From a virus: a DNA stretch of 64,000 bases. The stretch is taken from IMG/VR virus record IMGVR_UViG_3300044981_000204, positions 1 through 64,000 of that record; one strand, given 5' to 3'. Below the pieces are notes generated by a model. The model had not been told where the DNA came from and searched no databases. It saw nothing but the letters and a program-made list of their open reading frames with translations. Every line of letters begins with the position of its first letter. Positions within the stretch are counted from its first letter, which is position 1. Positions 17,068 to 62,497 of this stretch are shown here, in pieces. The position numbers and the translations under genes are program-made.

Positions 17068-20012
17068 AAGTCCTCAGCATATTATTCTTCAGCGTGCTAG
17101 CAGGCGCTCAGGGATTCGTAGTAGAGAACTTCTCTGGCGGAGTAAACGGCACGAACCCAACGGCCACGCAAATTGCCAAGGGCTACTTCGGCTCACTAAG
17201 CGGGATTAATGACAATAGTGCGTGTAACTTGGCATCATCCTCTACCAAGTGCCTTGACATCGGGTCCAACAACAACAGTTTCACCGCGATCAGTCTCACA
17301 AACACGTGGCGTTGCTCGGACGGCATTCCCTCCAACAGCGGCGGCTCCTCTGCGCTGTACTTCGACTATGACGGCTCAGTCGGTGGTGGTCATCAGAACA
17401 TTTATATAGGTTTTGAACTTCCCAGTTCGGACAACGGCGGCAGCGCGGTCCAGATGTTAGTCGAGTGGACTTGCATCCCCACGTTGATGACCAACAGCGG
17501 CACAATTGACGATGCGACGATCACCGGTACCGGAACGAGCGCGCTGTCCAACCTAGTGTTCTCTGGCGGCACGGGGCATTATCGGCTGGAAGGAACCTGC
17601 GGGCAAAACGGCTGGCCAGCGGGAGACTGCGACATACCGGCTCCGATCAACACGACCTTTCAGCTCGCCGTCTATCTCCCGATCAAGGGCGCGTGCAGCG
17701 GCACGATCAACACGATTGCGGATGCGGTCGCCGCGAGTTGCATTATCATTGCGACCTACGACAGAACCGGTAGTTTGCTCGGGTTCGCCTACAAGTCCAC
17801 GGGAGGCACCCCTGGAACGGCGTGCAGCGGTACTTGCCAGCCGACCGGCTTCACAATGGGTGATCTCAACGGCGCCATCACGTCAAGCGGGCACATCCAG
17901 CACGCGAACCTGAAGATGTGTCAGGTTGGCTGCACATCCTCTCAATTTCCGTTGCTTGAAACCCCAGTTCCATTATGGGACGGAATTATCACGCCGCCGC
18001 GCGCCACGGACTGGACGCAAGCCGGAATCTCGGGTGGAATCCCGTCTGGCAGTTGGACGCAGTGCGGCAGCACGTTGGCGGCGGGTTCCTATAACGGCTC
18101 GACGATCACTACCACGCTCGCCGGATGTGGAGCGAACACATACTACCTTCTCGGATCAGGTACGTTCAATGTTAGTGGCGCGATTCAACTACCCACTGCC
18201 GGGCATGTGGAGTTGAGAGGATCGGGATCGAACTCGACCTTTCTCGTGATGAGCGGAACCATCGCCACGTGCGGGCAGGTAGCGAGCGCGGTTTGCATGG
18301 TGAGTTCCGATACGACATACTCACAGACGCCTCCGGCCAATACGTTTACGTGGACAGCGGGGTTCGCACAATCCAGCACTTCAGTGACGCTCTCTACCTT
18401 AGCTGGATCTGGTCCGACGGCGATCAGCACGACAAACCCCACGCTAATCTGGTTCGACCAGTGCGACACGGGTTATAGCGGCGTAGCGTGTGCTACGGGA
18501 AATGCCACCGATAATTCGCAGATGTACGTCTGCGGCGACACCTATAACGCCACTGGTCCGCATGGCTGCTCAGCGAACGGCGGCGGAAGCGGGGCGCGTC
18601 CGCATCGTGACCAGCTTGAGGTTCACATCGCAACTGCCGTCAACACGGGAACAGGTGTTGTAACGCTGGCCACGCCGATCATTGGACCAAACTGGGTGTC
18701 GGGGCAGAACCCGCAGGCGTGGCTGGTCAATCCAGCGACCCAACTCGGAGTGAGCAATCTGTCCATCGACCCGAGTGGAGCGACGAGCGGAGGTACAGGC
18801 AAGGCGTGCGTAGACGGATTCAACCTTTACCAATTCTGGGTCTCGCAGGTCCGGTGCATCAATCCTAACAACCGTGGTATCAACATCGCCGAGTCGGCCT
18901 CTGGGATCGTTGTCAGCAATTACGTTTATGGCACAACAGGGACGCAGCCGTCAATCTACGGAATCCGCATGAACGGGGTTGGACTAGTTCGTGTCGAGAA
19001 CAACATCCTGCAACAGTCAGGCCCGATCTTTCACGACGGCGCAGCTTCTGGTAACGTAATCGCCTACAATTTTTGCCAGAACGGTTCTTCGTTCATCGAC
19101 CCGAGCAATGCGCTTACCGCGTGCATCACGGACCACGCCTACGACTATTTCAATCTGTTTGAGGGAAATGTAGTCAATCAAGTCGGCAGTGACGATATCC
19201 ATGCATCAGCCGACATGGAGACGCGCTTTCGGAACTTCCTAACTGGCTGGGATTCAGTTCCAAGTGCCCCGATCACCAGCTTTACTAACTCCGTTGGAGA
19301 CTTTGCCTATGCCCGCTACGCGAACAACATTGCGAGCGTTATGGGCACCCCGACTTACCACACTGGCTATTCAGCAGCCTCAAACGCCCTGGACATCTAT
19401 TGGGAAGGCGGTGGCCCCGGTAGCGTTCCGACCGATAGCCTGACAAAATCCACATCAATCTTCTGGGGAAGCTACGACACAGTTACCGCGGCAGTTCGAT
19501 ATTGCGGAAATTCTACCGACACTGGATGGAGCACGACCTGTTCGAGCACAGCGGAGAGCGCATTCTCAGCGAGCACCTACCCCGGATTCGTCCCGGTCCT
19601 CGGTGACACCTCAGCGGGCCAAGACGCACTCCCGGCATCCCTTTATCTCAGCACCAAGCCCTCCTGGTGGTTTCCCCTTACGATCCCATTCCCAGCGGTC
19701 GGGCCCGACATCAGTAGCGGCAACGTTGGAGTGTGTTCGGGAACCATTAACACGGTGGGGCACTATTCGGGAGTTCCAGCTACGGCCAACGGTCAATGCA
19801 CTGGGACTTCCTTGATGGCGAGCGCTTGGGGTGGACACGTAAACGCGATCCCGGCGATGAACTGCTACCTCAACACGATGTCGGGTCCGCCAGATGGAAG
19901 CGGGAGTGCCCTTAGCTTCGACGCGGGCATCTGCTACGCCGGCACCAATGCAGCAGGCGGCAGCACCGCGGGCGGCTCCGTCACAATCAGCGGCAGCGCT
20001 CAGGTACACTAA
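17064..20012 (+). CDS. Secreted right-handed beta-helix (pectin-lyase-like) protein, Cys-rich
   Basis: ATG 17064 with ATGA coupling; signal peptide; DWTQAGISGGIP, VELRGSG, VENNI, GNVIAYN and NLFEGN beta-helix motifs. Confidence 0.75.
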   Translation: MKVLSILFFSVLAGAQGFVVENFSGGVNGTNPTATQIAKGYFGSLSGINDNSACNLASSSTKCLDIGSNNNSFTAISLTNTWRCSDGIPSNSGGSSALYFDYDGSVGGGHQNIYIGFELPSSDNGGSAVQMLVEWTCIPTLMTNSGTIDDATITGTGTSALSNLVFSGGTGHYRLEGTCGQNGWPAGDCDIPAPINTTFQLAVYLPIKGACSGTINTIADAVAASCIIIATYDRTGSLLGFAYKSTGGTPGTACSGTCQPTGFTMGDLNGAITSSGHIQHANLKMCQVGCTSSQFPLLETPVPLWDGIITPPRATDWTQAGISGGIPSGSWTQCGSTLAAGSYNGSTITTTLAGCGANTYYLLGSGTFNVSGAIQLPTAGHVELRGSGSNSTFLVMSGTIATCGQVASAVCMVSSDTTYSQTPPANTFTWTAGFAQSSTSVTLSTLAGSGPTAISTTNPTLIWFDQCDTGYSGVACATGNATDNSQMYVCGDTYNATGPHGCSANGGGSGARPHRDQLEVHIATAVNTGTGVVTLATPIIGPNWVSGQNPQAWLVNPATQLGVSNLSIDPSGATSGGTGKACVDGFNLYQFWVSQVRCINPNNRGINIAESASGIVVSNYVYGTTGTQPSIYGIRMNGVGLVRVENNILQQSGPIFHDGAASGNVIAYNFCQNGSSFIDPSNALTACITDHAYDYFNLFEGNVVNQVGSDDIHASADMETRFRNFLTGWDSVPSAPITSFTNSVGDFAYARYANNIASVMGTPTYHTGYSAASNALDIYWEGGGPGSVPTDSLTKSTSIFWGSYDTVTAAVRYCGNSTDTGWSTTCSSTAESAFSASTYPGFVPVLGDTSAGQDALPASLYLSTKPSWWFPLTIPFPAVGPDISSGNVGVCSGTINTVGHYSGVPATANGQCTGTSLMASAWGGHVNAIPAMNCYLNTMSGPPDGSGSALSFDAGICYAGTNAAGGSTAGGSVTISGSAQVH

Positions 20013-20016
20013 CCAT

Positions 20017-20136
20017 ATGCGAATCCTTCTCACCATCCTCGCACTCGCCGCTGGCCTCGCGGCACAGGACACGACCAGCGGAAAACTATCAGCATCAGGT
20101 GTTGGCACGGTGACAATAACTCGCCATGCTCATTGA
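20017..20136 (+). CDS. 39-aa signal-peptide ORF, possibly a truncated remnant
   Basis: MRILLTILALAAGLAA-QD followed by a short tail ending at an AT-rich junction. Confidence 0.45.
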   Translation: MRILLTILALAAGLAAQDTTSGKLSASGVGTVTITRHAH

Positions 20137-20255
20137 GACTTATTTCTCATATCCACATTTCGAAAATAGATAATCTTGAAGATTCGTCATCTGTAATTTT
20201 CCTATGTACTATGGTTCGTGCTTCGTGATATAGTGTTCTTGGAGGTTCGAGAGCT

Positions 20256-20600
20256 ATGGCATATAGGAGGAGTGTTCGTATTGCTGCCCGAGAGGCGATG
20301 CAGAAGTTCAACTACGACCCCCTGGATGTATTGGTGCAGTTTGCTCAGCTTGAGACGACCAACCAAGACACCAAGCTCGAGATTGCTCAAACGCTCTTGC
20401 CGTACATGTATCCTAAGCTCTCAAACGTGACCATGGACGCTGAGGTGTCGGTCAACGAGAGGTCCGACAACCAAGCGGCGCTTCTTAGGCGCATCCTTGA
20501 GAATCCGGAACTTGCAGACGCTGCCCAGCGACTCAGCATAGCGGCGGCTGAGGCCTCCCTTGAGTTGGATAGCTCAAGCGTCGGTGGTATGATTCAGTAG
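20256..20600 (+). CDS. terS: Putative terminase small subunit
   Basis: Lies upstream of terL; DPLDVLVQFA...LLPYMYPKLS pattern recalled from phage TerS-like proteins. Confidence 0.55.
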   Translation: MAYRRSVRIAAREAMQKFNYDPLDVLVQFAQLETTNQDTKLEIAQTLLPYMYPKLSNVTMDAEVSVNERSDNQAALLRRILENPELADAAQRLSIAAAEASLELDSSSVGGMIQ

Positions 20601-20615
20601 AAAGGAGAAAACAAG

Positions 20616-20804
20616 GTGGACGAGAAACAATTCCTTGAGTCGTTCGTTCGACTCACGTTGAACTACTTCAAGAAGCACGGCGACGTGCACGACTTCGATG
20701 CGGCGGACGACCTCTTGGCGCAGATGGATGTGCTGTTTCCTAAGTCAGAAGCAGTTCCTGTGCCGGTGGTCGAGGGTGAGCAAGAACCTGCTGCTGAGCA
20801 GTGA
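20616..20804 (+). CDS. Hypothetical protein
   Basis: 62 aa with AAAGGAG SD. Confidence 0.65.
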   Translation: MDEKQFLESFVRLTLNYFKKHGDVHDFDAADDLLAQMDVLFPKSEAVPVPVVEGEQEPAAEQ

Positions 20805-20859
20805 AAGACGAGGCTGATTGGGAAGTTCGTCCGAGCACCTTAATCTAGCCTAGGAGAGC

Positions 20860-20982
20860 ATGATCGAGGTTGGTCCCACCACTCAGATGATGATGGAGGG
20901 CGGACTTTTTTCGTCCGTTCTTTGGAAGGCTTCACCTGCGTCCATGGTTGTGCTTCTCTTTAGTGGAAAAAGCAATTCATGA
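20860..20982 (+). pseudogene. Truncated duplicate of the terL 5' end (40-aa leader ORF coupled to the endonuclease)
   Basis: MIEVGPTTQMMMEGGLFSSVLWKASPASM is 25/29 identical to the terL start at 21655; has an AGGAG SD; its TGA overlaps the endonuclease ATG (ATGA). Confidence 0.9.
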
Positions 20983-21662
20983 AAAAGTTTTTTTGTCGAA
21001 GTGATGTTTTTCAAGTGCTTACTCCTGAAGCTTGTTATTGGGCGGGAGTGTTGGCTTCAGATGGCTGTATTCGTATTAAGGGAAAAAACTCGCGAATAGT
21101 TGTATTGAAGGTCGATGATCGATCTTTGGTTGATTCATTCAAAAGTTTTCTTCAGTCTGAAGCAACAATCTTTTCGGGGGAAAGGTTTAATGGGAAGCAT
21201 TGGTACTTACTTCAAGTTTCTGATAGTCAGATTTTCTTTGACTTATGTACTCAGGGAATTGTCCCTAATAAGTCGTTGACTTTGAAAGTTTCTCAAAGAT
21301 TGGCCATGGACCGTGATTTTTGGCGAGGTGTCATGGATGGGGATGGTTGTCTTTGCATCAAGTCGAGTGGATACTTCTCCTTGCTGCTTTGCTCTGCTTC
21401 ATGGGATTTTATCCTTCAATTTAGTGATTTTCTTGGTAGTTTGGGAATTGTTCGTAAAATTACAGTTGATAGCCGTAAGCGTTCACCATTGTACAGTATT
21501 CAACTTTCTGGTTGGCAAGCTAGAACACTTGTTAAGGAGCTATACCGCGATTGTTGTATGGCTTTGGATAGGAAGTTGAGTATAGCTGAAGCAGTGATGG
21601 ATGCAAAAGGTGTACGGATGGTCGGCGTAACCGCTAAGGAGGAACTTGGGCATCATGATTGA
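20979..21662 (+). CDS. Free-standing double-motif LAGLIDADG homing endonuclease
   Basis: YWAGVLASDGCI and FWRGVMDGDGCL motifs, GIVPNKS, LDRK; visibly more AT-rich than the flanks. Confidence 0.9.
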   Translation: MKKFFCRSDVFQVLTPEACYWAGVLASDGCIRIKGKNSRIVVLKVDDRSLVDSFKSFLQSEATIFSGERFNGKHWYLLQVSDSQIFFDLCTQGIVPNKSLTLKVSQRLAMDRDFWRGVMDGDGCLCIKSSGYFSLLLCSASWDFILQFSDFLGSLGIVRKITVDSRKRSPLYSIQLSGWQARTLVKELYRDCCMALDRKLSIAEAVMDAKGVRMVGVTAKEELGHHD

Positions 21663-23325
21663 AGTCGGACCTACTACGCAAATGATGTTGGAGGATAGTA
21701 TGTTTTCATCTGTGCTTTGGAAGGCATCTCCTGCATCAATGGCCGTGAAATTGAGTGGTGGACAGTTTAAGACCTGGAATTATGTTCAGTTGTTGTCTAG
21801 GAAGTTGATTGATGTTGCAGTTGGTCGCTGTAGGCGATTGATAGTCGTGATGCCCCCGTGATCGCGTCATGGTAAATCAGAAATGGTCTCTAAGTGGTTT
21901 CCCGTGTGGTATTTGGAGACCTTCCAGGATAAGCGATTCATTTTAGCATCATACGAGATGGAGTTCGCGTCTAGGTGGGGGGCTAAGGCGAGGGACATAG
22001 TTGCTGAGAACCAGGACTTGTTAACATTGCGGTTTAAAGACAAGAATCCCGCTCGACATCACTGGGAGACAACAGCCGATGGTTCTATGGTGTGCGCAGG
22101 GGTTGGCGGCCCTCTTACCGGCAAAGGAGCCGATGTTTTAGTCATCGACGATCCGTGTAAGAACAGTGAGGAAGCTAACTCACTCACAATGAGGGAGAAA
22201 GCTTGGGATTGGTACACGTCGACCGCCAGGACAAGGTTGGAGCCCGGTGGTTCTATAGTGGTGATGTCCACTCGCTGGCATTCTGACGACTTAGTGGGTC
22301 GCCTCATCAATCCTGAGTTTTCTAGCAATAAGGGAGTAAGGGAGGAGTGGGAGGTGTTTTGTTTTCCTGCGTGTGCTGAACCGGAGTCTGAGAGGCACTA
22401 CCTCAACTTTGGCGCCAGGACCAATGACCTTAGGACCGGGGCTGTGTCTACGACTGCAGATCATAGGTCGAGGTCTATAAGGGACGTACTTGCTGAAGAA
22501 GCCAACCCAGAGTGGCGCGATATGTTAGGTCGCCGACGCGGACAGGCTTTGTGCCCCGATAGGTTCGACGAGGACGACCTGGCGAAGTTTCGCAGCGTTA
22601 GCCTTAGTGATTGGTTCGCAATGTATCAACAGCGCCCTGGGGATGAGGCCGATGAGGGGAACGTGTATCATCGGTTTGATGAAAAGACCCACTGCAGGCC
22701 GTTGAATCGCGAGGAAGGCATGCAGCTGTTTGTGGCGATGGACTTCAACGTCGACCCTATGTCGGTGCTGATTGGCCAGTACGACCGTGGTAGTGGGGTT
22801 CGTCAAATGGAGCGTTGCGAGTTCTTGGAGGAGCTTATACTTCCAAATAGCAACACCCCCTCCATGATGATGGAATTGCTGCAGCTGCTGAAGAAGTACC
22901 AGTACGGGTACACGCTTGAGGTTGAGGTGTATGGAGATGCTGCTGGTACCCAGAGGTCTTCGCAGAGCCAGAAGAGCAATTGGCAGATAGTTGCGGAGTA
23001 TTTCCAACTTGATGGAACCATACACTACGCCTTCCGTCGGCGCAAGGCAAACCCCATGATAGTGGACAGGGTCGGCGCAGTCAATACGATGCTTAAGTCG
23101 GCGGATGGCACCGTTAGGATGTGGGTAGATGACGTTAGGTGCCCCGAGTTGGTCAAGGACCTGAAAAAGGTTCGGTGGCAGGTTGATTCCGGAGGAAGTA
23201 GCACTGGACTCTTGGATAAGTCCGACAAGCGCCGAACGCACGTTAGTGACGCGGCAGGCTATGCTGTCGAGTACTTGTTCAGTTTGAGGGTTCGCGGCGG
23301 TGAGCGAAAAGGTATCTTACAATAG
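21655..23325 (+). CDS. terL: Terminase large subunit with in-frame TGA (21859-21861) inside the Walker A motif
   Basis: AAGGAGG SD and ATG 21655; LIVVMPP*SRHGKS, LTGKGADVLVIDDP (Walker B), STRWHSDDL, nuclease AMDFNVDP...HVSDAAGY. Both parts are in the same frame. Confidence 0.92.
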
Positions 23326-23341
23326 GATTTGGAGGTTTTCG

Positions 23342-23650
23342 ATGCTCTGGGTTGGACTTGGGAAGGTTGCCGTTGCTACTGCTGGAGTTCCAGTGCCTCT
23401 CAGCACCCTATACGCTCCCACGTTGAAGGTCAACACTGTGATGGTGACATACGACCCTGCTGATGGATCGTCGACCGTCATCGTGAAGGATAGGGCGGGA
23501 AACATCATGGCCAATATGTCCTCCGTGCAGGCGCCTCCAACCGTGTTTACTGCTCCTGGAGGAGACCAGTTGGACCTCCGCGATTTCCAAATAGACGTTG
23601 CTAGTGGGTCGAATGGCAAGGGGCCTACCGTTGCCCTGGGCATCAATTGA
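23342..23650 (+). CDS. Small hypothetical protein, possibly virion-associated
   Basis: GGAGG SD and ATG 23342. Confidence 0.65.
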   Translation: MLWVGLGKVAVATAGVPVPLSTLYAPTLKVNTVMVTYDPADGSSTVIVKDRAGNIMANMSSVQAPPTVFTAPGGDQLDLRDFQIDVASGSNGKGPTVALGIN

Positions 23651-61819: not shown

Positions 61820-62497
61820 ATGATTAGGCCAATGATCTTGTTGCTTGCGCCGTTGGCCCTAGCGGTGTCGCAGCCCACGGTGCAGCCCGGTGGCGTTCGC
61901 CATGTGACCGTCTCATTCAGCGCCCAGGGGGCGTTGGGGTCCTCCCTCACCGGGTTGAGCTTCACGGGCTATAGTGCCACGGTGTGCAGTGCAGATGGCC
62001 AGGGCATCGACGTGGGCGGTGGGAGGGTTTGGCAGGCGGCTGAGTCCTTGGGGTTGAGGCTCGTCACGCCCCACGTTGCCTCTCTAGCCGCAACACAAGC
62101 TAAGGCCAGATCAAAGTGGCAGATAATGGCCGTGTTGGGTGCTGAGCTGATGTTCGACATGGCCGTAGTAGCTGGCGCAGACATCGTTCACGTGAACCCT
62201 GCTAAGGTCGTTGGCAAGGTTTGGCGAATCACCCCAATCATCCTCAATAAGAAGCTGGGGGATTGGAACGCTCAGCAGGCCCTGGTCCACCCGGACCTGG
62301 TCTCATCCTTCGGAGACCTTGCCCTGTACCCGGACCACATCATCAGCGTGTCGTCCGGCGGAAACTGCCCACAGAGGCTGTTCCTCGCATCTTCGGGAGG
62401 ACCGGATGGTGGCTCGGTGGATCTGCAGATAGCTGTGCTGCCACCAGCAGTGGTGTTCGCCCCCACCCCACAAGCTGCTCCCGTTCTCGGGAAATAG
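61820..62497 (+). CDS. Hypothetical secreted protein
   Basis: MIRPMILLLAPLALA signal peptide; GAGGA SD. Confidence 0.65.
   Translation: MIRPMILLLAPLALAVSQPTVQPGGVRHVTVSFSAQGALGSSLTGLSFTGYSATVCSADGQGIDVGGGRVWQAAESLGLRLVTPHVASLAATQAKARSKWQIMAVLGAELMFDMAVVAGADIVHVNPAKVVGKVWRITPIILNKKLGDWNAQQALVHPDLVSSFGDLALYPDHIISVSSGGNCPQRLFLASSGGPDGGSVDLQIAVLPPAVVFAPTPQAAPVLGK

Follow-up and report, generated by a model that had tools for sequence, protein, structure and literature searches.

A candidate mobile cassette in a phage terminase gene: a LAGLIDADG endonuclease gene and a six-nucleotide insert that may be skipped by a stop-hop

How can a phage make a working large terminase subunit (TerL) from a gene that is interrupted by a stop codon within its Walker A motif, and why should that stop be found a short distance downstream of a homing endonuclease gene? 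These questions are raised by the terL locus (positions 20850-23325, plus strand) of a soil phage known from the IMG/VR virus record IMGVR_UViG_3300044981_000204, which is 120,021 nt long and rated 92% complete, and whose first 64 kb are the window analysed here, position 1 being its first letter. The answer that we favour, and that we hold to be about evenly poised between right and wrong, is that terL has received a mobile cassette resembling that of MobA and gene 60 in phage T4, and that the 6-nt insert it carries is skipped by translating ribosomes through a stop-hop at CCG-UGA-UCG. The parts of such a cassette would be a free-standing LAGLIDADG gene, a donor terL 5' end and a short insert that is led by a stop codon and lies in the Walker A codons.

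Apart from one TGA, terL reads as a single frame from the ATG at 21655 to the stop at 23325 (...RLIVVMPP-TGA-TCG-RHGKSE-MVSKWF...), with one lesion in 556 codons. Its parts are as follows.

21655-21858, plus strand: terL codons 1-68, the last three encoding MPP, with an 8-nt overlap between the start and the end of the endonuclease gene
21856-21864, plus strand: proposed 9-nt stop-hop site CCG UGA UCG (take-off proline codon, stop, landing codon), from the sequence and homologue alignments, with a putative mechanism
21859-21864, plus strand: 6-nt insert TGATCG between the PP and RHGKS codons of Walker A, from the sequence and homologue alignments
21865-23325, plus strand: rest of terL, RHGKSE and then the 480-residue part called from the ATG at 21883 (Pfam Terminase_6N, PHROG)

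Gene callers split this gene into a 68-residue protein (P0122) and a 480-residue protein (P0002); the family is Terminase_6N in Pfam and terminase large subunit in PHROG, and a terL profile compared by sequence with the Protein Data Bank (PDB) found no match. The preliminary description had reported a 6-nt insert in terL, and the alignments bear this out, the insert being absent from every homologue that spans the site. In an alignment with 24 homologues, all 16 spanning sequences read MPP or TPP followed directly by RHGKS, and the motif is contiguous in each of the 38 other fetched loci that carry it (162 loci were scanned). Among the 120 best terL homologues the spacing is zero in 89 and one to six residues in none, the remaining 31, in which the regular expression for the motif was not matched, being N-terminally truncated, intein-bearing or variant in the motif. 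The spacing of a Walker A motif, GxxxxGK[ST], is fixed, and since no homologue spanning the site shows any spacing, TGATCG can be taken as having been inserted into a loop whose length does not vary. Its placement is ambiguous by 2 nt, with CG on both flanks, TGATCG, CGTGAT and GTGATC being equivalent. One of these placements, CGTGAT, is present also 11 nt upstream (21846-21851), which suggests that the insert may have arisen by local duplication, the probability of such a match by chance being about 3% by a rough estimate.

What would a ribosome make of this TGA? TGA ends 39 of the 88 non-overlapping long open reading frames (ORFs) of the phage, in which it is the commonest stop, and no credible UGA suppressor tRNA was found by ARAGORN, which returned a tRNA-like sequence of 97 nt (62249-62345, minus strand) whose anticodon has 4 nt (aagg) and whose acceptor stem is mismatched at several positions, probably a false positive, and one permuted tmRNA match outside the window. 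As far as sequence can tell, the TGA in terL is an ordinary stop codon, and a reassigned code or a suppressor tRNA was rejected on these two grounds. Three further ways out were rejected as well. A second terminase gene finds no place in the 120-kb record, where there is no other match to a large-subunit family (PF03237, PF03354, PF04466, PF17289); +1 or -1 frameshifting at CCCCCG would lead nowhere because RHGKS is not encoded in the other frames; and re-initiation is precluded, no start codon being in frame between the TGA and the RHGKS codons. Given an ordinary stop, no second terL and neither re-initiation nor frameshifting, a working TerL would need either readthrough, with two added residues, or a 6-nt hop.

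Readthrough would have a near-cognate tRNA, for example tRNA-Trp, decode UGA to give a full-length TerL with X-Ser between PP and RHGKS that is active enough. It asks for no special ribosome movement, the insert being in frame, and it would profit from the Pro-Pro that precedes the stop, after which termination is slow. We nevertheless consider it quite unlikely, since an extra residue at this site is seen in none of the homologues (0 of 120, 0 of 38 and 0 of 16), the spacing of the motif does not vary, and the stop concerned is the commonest of the phage, with no suppressor tRNA found. According to passages in a recoding review the two products would differ by two residues only (PMC5009743). 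The hop is favoured because readthrough would lengthen a loop of never-varying length.

The stop-hop would proceed as follows. A ribosome at CCG would carry peptidyl-tRNA-Pro in its P site, with UGA in the adjoining A site, and slow termination after Pro-Pro would give the tRNA time to unpair and to re-pair 6 nt downstream on UCG. UGA stands directly after CCG, and UCG matches CCG at codon positions 2 and 3, with a possible G-U pair at position 1. Decoding would then resume at CGU (21865) and restore the MPP-RHGKS P-loop exactly, 9 nt encoding one proline. No stimulatory signal (take-off hairpin, Shine-Dalgarno-like element or nascent-peptide signal) was identified at the hop site, and such signals may be unneeded for a hop of 6 nt. 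An imperfect 8-bp inverted repeat (21846-21853 and 21864-21871) surrounds CCCC together with the take-off codon and the stop. This repeat could represent pseudo-palindromic target half-sites or an RNA hairpin, is not beyond chance by a rough estimate and is not used as evidence here.

The second question, that of the neighbouring endonuclease, begins with the identity of the gene.

20979-21662, plus strand: LAGLIDADG homing endonuclease gene, free-standing, two-domain, 227 residues (Pfam, PHROG, PDB profile, structural model, Foldseek)

This ORF matches LAGLIDADG_3 (E 1.3e-9) and no other Pfam family, the genome search placing two LAGLIDADG_3 matches inside it, and it matches PHROG 4645 'endonuclease' (E 3.5e-27). 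A profile of the protein and four close homologues matches I-Tsp061I (PDB 2dch, E 3.1e-5), which is also among the top Foldseek matches of its AlphaFold model (E 1.6e-9), together with I-AniI and I-OnuI. The model (pLDDT 86.7, pTM 0.85) displays a tandem alpha-beta-beta-alpha-beta-beta-alpha fold, in which both LAGLIDADG helices end in Asp-Gly (…LASDG… and …MDGDG…), with an acidic residue in each motif. Homologues share D120-G121-D122-G123 without exception and conserve the first motif, and the C-terminal GVTAKE is invariant in all five close homologues. The product thus looks, from sequence and model, like an intact and potentially active free-standing LAGLIDADG enzyme. That such a gene lies intact about 200 nt upstream of the insert had been stated in the preliminary description and was confirmed, its stop (21660-21662) preceding the TGA (21859-21861) by 196 nt. 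No significant similarity (E 0.12 or worse) was found to the endonucleases of inteins carried by terL genes of this family. In GenBank phages, where terL has no relative above 40% identity, the endonuclease has relatives of only about 30% identity, the closest of which include intron-encoded enzymes of Staphylococcus phages.

How this gene came to lie here is suggested by a duplication of the terL 5' end around it, a feature new relative to the preliminary description.

20850-20952, plus strand: direct repeat copy 1, 103 nt, apparent remnant of the resident terL start with its ribosome-binding region and 29 codons (repeat search, alignment)
20860-20982, plus strand: remnant ORF of 40 codons, the first 29 of which are a copy of the terL start (ORF list)
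21636-21643, plus strand: putative ribosome-binding site AAGGAGGA of the new terL start, inside the GVTAKEE codons of the endonuclease (sequence)
21645-21747, plus strand: direct repeat copy 2, apparent donor-type replacement terL start, with low GC content at third codon positions (GC3) (repeat search, GC3, codon comparison)

The two copies, 73% identical, flank the endonuclease on both sides. Their 29 codon pairs comprise 10 identical ones, 15 with a synonymous difference and four with a non-synonymous one, and since the differences are almost all synonymous both copies should have diverged as working terL starts, in different genomes. In our interpretation, the duplicated terL 5' end with its mostly synonymous differences shows that a cassette consisting of the endonuclease gene, a terL 5' end and the insert came from a diverged donor of lower GC and recombined into the resident terL. 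The left junction is read as illegitimate, leaving the remnant, and the right junction as lying approximately at the insert.

Base composition agrees in part. An AT-rich tract had been claimed for about 20940-22050, and the contrast itself holds, GC being 0.36-0.47 at about 20800-21900 and 0.53-0.60 in the flanks; the right edge, however, lies nearer 21880 when judged by GC3, and is weak (p = 0.12). GC3 is 0.62 in the remnant, 0.35 in the endonuclease gene, 0.45 in terL codons 1-76 and 0.62 in the rest of terL, and 0.59-0.76 in the neighbouring genes, a range that includes the upstream copy of the repeat.

The translation signals of the locus appear to have been rearranged with it. Between the remnant and the endonuclease ORF there are 32 nt and after the latter none, and the TGA of the remnant ORF overlaps the endonuclease ATG (ATGA, 20979-20982), so that the endonuclease is probably translated in coupling with the former terL start. 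Expression looks chained, from the start signals of the 29-codon remnant left upstream, which would feed endonuclease translation, through the 3' end of the endonuclease gene, which would supply the ribosome-binding site, to the rebuilt terL, the coupling being deduced from this layout.

Could the endonuclease instead sit inside a self-splicing intron or an intein, the interruption of terL being removed at the RNA or protein level? Intron-encoded Staphylococcus phage enzymes do figure among its relatives at about 30% identity, and inteins are common in the terL family. We see next to no probability in this explanation. Rfam over 20300-22600 gave no significant family (the sole match, E 0.17, is to an unrelated sRNA), the 32 nt before and 0 nt after the endonuclease leave no room for an intron core, and 6 nt are too short for either kind of element. 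An intron or intein was therefore rejected, with no Rfam intron, no domain other than LAGLIDADG_3 in the ORF and no similarity to intein endonucleases.

If the insert is part of a cassette, why is it kept? The proposal is that it breaks the target of the endonuclease in Walker A codons that are otherwise unchangeable, so that a revertant would be cut again. Protection is proposed, by analogy with MobA, because these codons presumably cannot change synonymously enough to escape cleavage. Homing itself would proceed by cleavage of the endonuclease-less allele, of which there are indirect signs in the duplicated donor-type terL 5' end, the low-GC3 tracts and a sporadic distribution among relatives.

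These relatives are known at the protein level, through gene calls and equal size of the longest contig. Three N-terminal fragments, P0122 from the window, P0142 and P0123, share 65-71% pairwise identity, and each stops precisely at MPP. P0123 has 69 residues and is 65% identical to the window fragment, and P0142, also of 69 residues, is 71% identical to it and ends in ...CMPP. All 14 family-invariant positions of this part are kept in the window terL and in the other two fragments. Six C-terminal fragments (P0053, P0057, P0064, P0069, P0070 and P0073) are called from 1-2 codons past RHGKSE and retain the invariant Walker B and nuclease residues. As no start codon is possible in RHGKSE and an ATG precedes PP, the breaks in these genes should lie within about eight codons of that in the window. 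One split allele is on a 138-kb contig.

It is against this conservation that a dead or dying terL has to be weighed, in which the stop would be damage, such as the scar of a repair after endonuclease cleavage, and the genome either defective or served by the terminase of another phage. The cassette does look recently arrived, with a remnant that has not yet decayed, the two occurrences of CGTGAT 11 nt apart resemble a repair or slippage scar, and the genome is held by one sample only. A decaying gene would hardly, however, show a single lesion in 556 codons, nor would the same break be expected in three N-fragments that are 65-71% identical and in six calls starting past the motif, all with their invariant residues, and be retained while the endonuclease itself diverged to 69% identity; the genome is moreover assembled in Logan as a contig of 117,753 nt at a depth of about 25. 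Damage is thus, in our judgement, an unlikely explanation.

Returning to the cassette, does the endonuclease travel with the split? Its close homologues are P0125 (69% identical), P0126 (69%), P0127 (60%) and P0128 (72%), the last on a 1,649-nt contig. A Logan contig size of 13,662 nt is common to P0125, the N-fragment P0142 and the C-fragment P0053, which starts MVSQWF; the layout of the window, endonuclease, N-fragment ending in MPP and C-fragment just past Walker A, thus appears to recur in a relative of about 70% identity. One 25-nt out-of-frame overlap could moreover encode both the end of P0125 and the beginning of P0142, as against at most 11 nt for 16 control N-termini, in a test that recovered the 8-nt overlap of the window itself. 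A size of 6,968 nt is common to P0127 and P0073, and one of 17,503 nt to P0126 and P0066, a terL call beginning some 50 codons farther downstream. All three close homologues that can be linked therefore go with a terL call that lacks the Walker A part. Of the 89 terL homologues with an intact motif, none shares a contig size with a close endonuclease homologue.

Among close relatives, some carry a split allele and others an unsplit one, in a distribution that appears sporadic. The intact P0136 shares 97% identity with the split N-fragment P0123 and 87% with the C-fragment P0069, and the intact P0141 falls in the same 90% cluster as the split P0064. The two identities of P0136 suggest that in that lineage, too, recombination had a boundary at Walker A. 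On the co-occurrence of endonuclease and insert that had been anticipated in the preliminary description the evidence is divided: the 13,662-nt triple, the two pairs and the lack of any intact link speak for it, and locus L083 and at least four split lineages without a linked endonuclease speak against it.

These and other observations weigh against the cassette with a stop-hop. At the hop site, take-off CCG and landing UCG are not identical, and in E. coli UGA is a strong stop when U comes next. No Shine-Dalgarno-like element was seen near the site on reading the sequence and the fold, the fold of 21800-21930 (131 nt) is unremarkable (z = -1.9, with 9 of 200 shuffles as stable), and the hairpin at 21846-21871 holds the take-off codon in its loop and would sit inside the ribosome at take-off. 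With respect to the cassette, the best GC3 change point, at terL codon 76, is weak (permutation p = 0.12), and in the lineage of the 15,786-nt contig, that of P0123 and P0069, the N-fragment is nearer the intact relative than the C-fragment is (97% versus 87%), unlike a freshly imported N-terminus. Split alleles on contigs of 15,786, 43,796, 3,183 and 3,910/138,037 nt have no linked endonuclease homologue among the proteins searched (those of 124-398 residues sharing 5-residue words with the query), which could reflect loss, as in MobA elements, or the limits of the search. At L083, a 228-residue LAGLIDADG gene whose product is 40% identical occupies the same position, its stop overlapping the terL start (L083:3303-5659 for the region with both), and yet terL there, 71% identical to that of the window, has an intact Walker A motif, so that an endonuclease at the terL locus does not require the insert. 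P0134, a 29% endonuclease homologue, has the same contig size as the intact P0013. Finally, the links between proteins consist of the same longest-contig size in nt and not of coordinates, and the breaks in relatives are read from gene calls only, so that the inserts there could be longer elements.

L083 is informative in another respect. GC3 of its terL is 0.44 over codons 1-319 and 0.79 thereafter (log-likelihood ratio 36), which marks a very clear foreign tract comprising the endonuclease gene and about 1 kb of terL, and shows that such genes drag flanking terL sequence along. In the window terL, a second GC3 change point, as weak as that at codon 76, lies at about codon 296-302 (22543-22561; 0.54 versus 0.66); close to the strong one in L083, it may mark an older exchange boundary.

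Some of these observations also suit an explanation in which the insert is skipped but does not confer immunity to this endonuclease: it would shield terL from inteins at GK^S or throttle TerL synthesis, and the enzyme would cut elsewhere, for example at about codon 30. LAGLIDADG inteins are indeed found in the terL family at Walker A (GK^S: P0037, P0054, P0078, P0094 and P0098) and after Walker B (P0032, P0044, P0048, P0055, P0056, P0060 and P0071), and L170/L171 are also intein-bearing; the GK^S site is 12 nt downstream of the insert, and these two insertion points imply that other nucleases too aim at these terL codons. Split alleles without a linked free-standing endonuclease, together with the enzyme beside an intact motif at L083, fit such a role, and the position of the left junction, codon 29/30, is as compatible with cleavage at that point as with cleavage at Walker A. 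This explanation is less easily squared with the three linkable close homologues, all of which accompany a terL call lacking Walker A and none an intact one, or with a low-GC3 tract that ends, if weakly, approximately at the insert. Furthermore, passages of a study of MobA elements document some that have lost the endonuclease and retained the bypass (bioRxiv 10.1101/2022.08.31.505936), so that split alleles without an endonuclease would be expected under immunity as well. Altogether we regard a role other than immunity as rather unlikely, and immunity to the adjacent LAGLIDADG enzyme as the preferred function of the insert.

How secure is the sequence itself? A second assembly, the 117,753-nt Logan contig mentioned above, is identical to the window over 20000-23500. 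This excludes an assembler artefact, yet the support is not independent, because the contig comes from the sole sequencing run listed as holding the stretch, which is probably that of the source sample; no RNA run is among the holders. Assembled contigs cannot show rare variants, and the absence of insert-less or endonuclease-less variants from them is uninformative. Searches of IMG/VR with the endonuclease, as a single protein or as an alignment, gave no match, nor did a DNA pattern search there for M-P-P-stop, 0-30 nt and R-H-G-K-S-E; in GTDB genomes this pattern gave four matches, all in unrelated genes. Close loci among the matches listed in the terL alignment searches are L003, L083 and L170/L171, all with an intact motif. 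Promoter and terminator scans were at chance level.

The surroundings of terL are only partly constant. A conserved ORF of about 115 residues belonging to PHROG 15261 (function not known) is upstream of terL in all relatives examined.

Window 20256-20804; L083:2467-3297; L003:2750-3097; L170:2608-2967: region of the PHROG 15261 ORF before terL

Between this ORF and terL the window has an ORF of 62 residues, L083 one of 158, L003 an unrelated one of 132 and L170 none. No small terminase subunit was identified among the ORFs before terL in the window, L083, L003 or L170.

What would follow if this reading of the locus were correct? A real hop would be a natural stop-hop in an essential and easily assayed enzyme, where according to passages of PMC5009743 such hops had been synthetic only, and 6 nt would be the smallest bypass to study. 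An endonuclease with a protective untranslated insert would be a general solution, reached independently with another nuclease family and another target gene. The ORFs of 68 and 480 residues produced by gene callers make such terL genes look split or dead, with consequences for the annotation of phages and for estimates of their completeness. The endonuclease may also recognize DNA encoding a P-loop, which would be of possible interest as a meganuclease scaffold. A broader claim, that the natural in-frame stop-hop, in which 9 nt give one proline, serves as the immunity mark of a LAGLIDADG enzyme in an essential gene and belongs to a wider, undescribed class of stop-led Walker A micro-inserts left by selfish nucleases in phage terminases, is more tentative, and we place it somewhat below an even chance.

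How does this locus compare with systems already known? The preliminary description had called the pairing of a LAGLIDADG gene with a terL insert a system not known to be described. For the pairing this stands, in that literature searches gave only phiHau3, the T4 work and intein surveys, and no LAGLIDADG gene paired with a stop-led terL insert, although further examples in terminases or metagenomes may be given in the supplements of PMC10732093 and of the preprint by Manning and Atkins; it is too broad for the components, because a terminase bypass in phiHau3 and the MobA/gene 60 cassette have both been published. In the large terminase of the Streptomyces phage phiHau3, two 10-nt inserts led by UUA are candidates for translational bypass, and the junction peptide was found by MS/MS in E. 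coli (PMC10732093, in part, and Smith et al. 2013 cited there). As here, short non-coding blocks interrupt a large terminase, with flanks that are adjacent in homologues and junctions of very low variability, and the first junction, GWG|KDPLL, is a P-loop in our own reading and not in that of the paper. Unlike here, the phiHau3 inserts disrupt the frame and start with a rare sense codon instead of a stop, the proposed function is to sense the state of host tRNA, the terminase family is different, and homing endonucleases are not mentioned in PMC10732093, where the word 'homing' does not occur.

The geometry of codon, stop and matching codon is that of the synthetic stop-hops of E. coli, in which 9 nt specify one amino acid (Weiss et al. 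1987, via PMC5009743). The codons of those constructs were engineered to match, whereas the landing codon here would pair only through a G-U at position 1. For natural in-frame stop-hops, the relevant passage of the 2016 review states 'no occurrences known' (PMC5009743). Terminase inteins of the LAGLIDADG type, as far as passages of bioRxiv 10.1101/2025.01.02.630785 describe them, likewise are selfish elements that aim at the most conserved terL codons; they remove themselves at the protein level and carry their own endonuclease, whereas here the enzyme is free-standing and the insert is 6 nt long.

A division of labour between endonuclease and protector is said to exist in the collaborative homing of cyanophages, where the free-standing endonuclease F-CphI reportedly adjoins its target gene and a separate insertion, an endonuclease-less psbA intron, interrupts the target site and protects it; that protector is a self-splicing group I intron, whereas the 6 nt in terL would be dealt with during translation. 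The closest parallel remains the MobA/gene 60 element of T4, reportedly recognized as a mobile cassette by Bonocora et al. in 2011. According to passages of bioRxiv 10.1101/2022.08.31.505936, nicking occurs 20 nt from its bypass insert, which confers protection where nearby polymorphisms confer none. Both loci have a free-standing endonuclease gene directly upstream of the interrupted gene, a donor-type homologous stretch between that gene and the insert, and a stop-led insert that, within strongly conserved coding sequence, follows the take-off codon directly, and both are sporadic among relatives, with endonuclease-less elements that are known for the T4 type and possibly seen here. The components differ throughout: the endonuclease is of the HNH family in T4 and LAGLIDADG here, the target is the large subunit of a topoisomerase in T4 and terL Walker A here, and the insert has 50 nt in T4 and 6 nt, in frame, here, where take-off and landing codons are non-identical and neither stem-loop, Shine-Dalgarno element nor nascent-peptide signal was identified. 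Nor is terL split into two working subunits, its 5' end being duplicated instead, and cleavage, protection and bypass are experimentally shown in T4 and proposed here from sequence. By analogy, then, the terL cassette would work like that of MobA and gene 60 but with none of its parts, the proposed function being the same.

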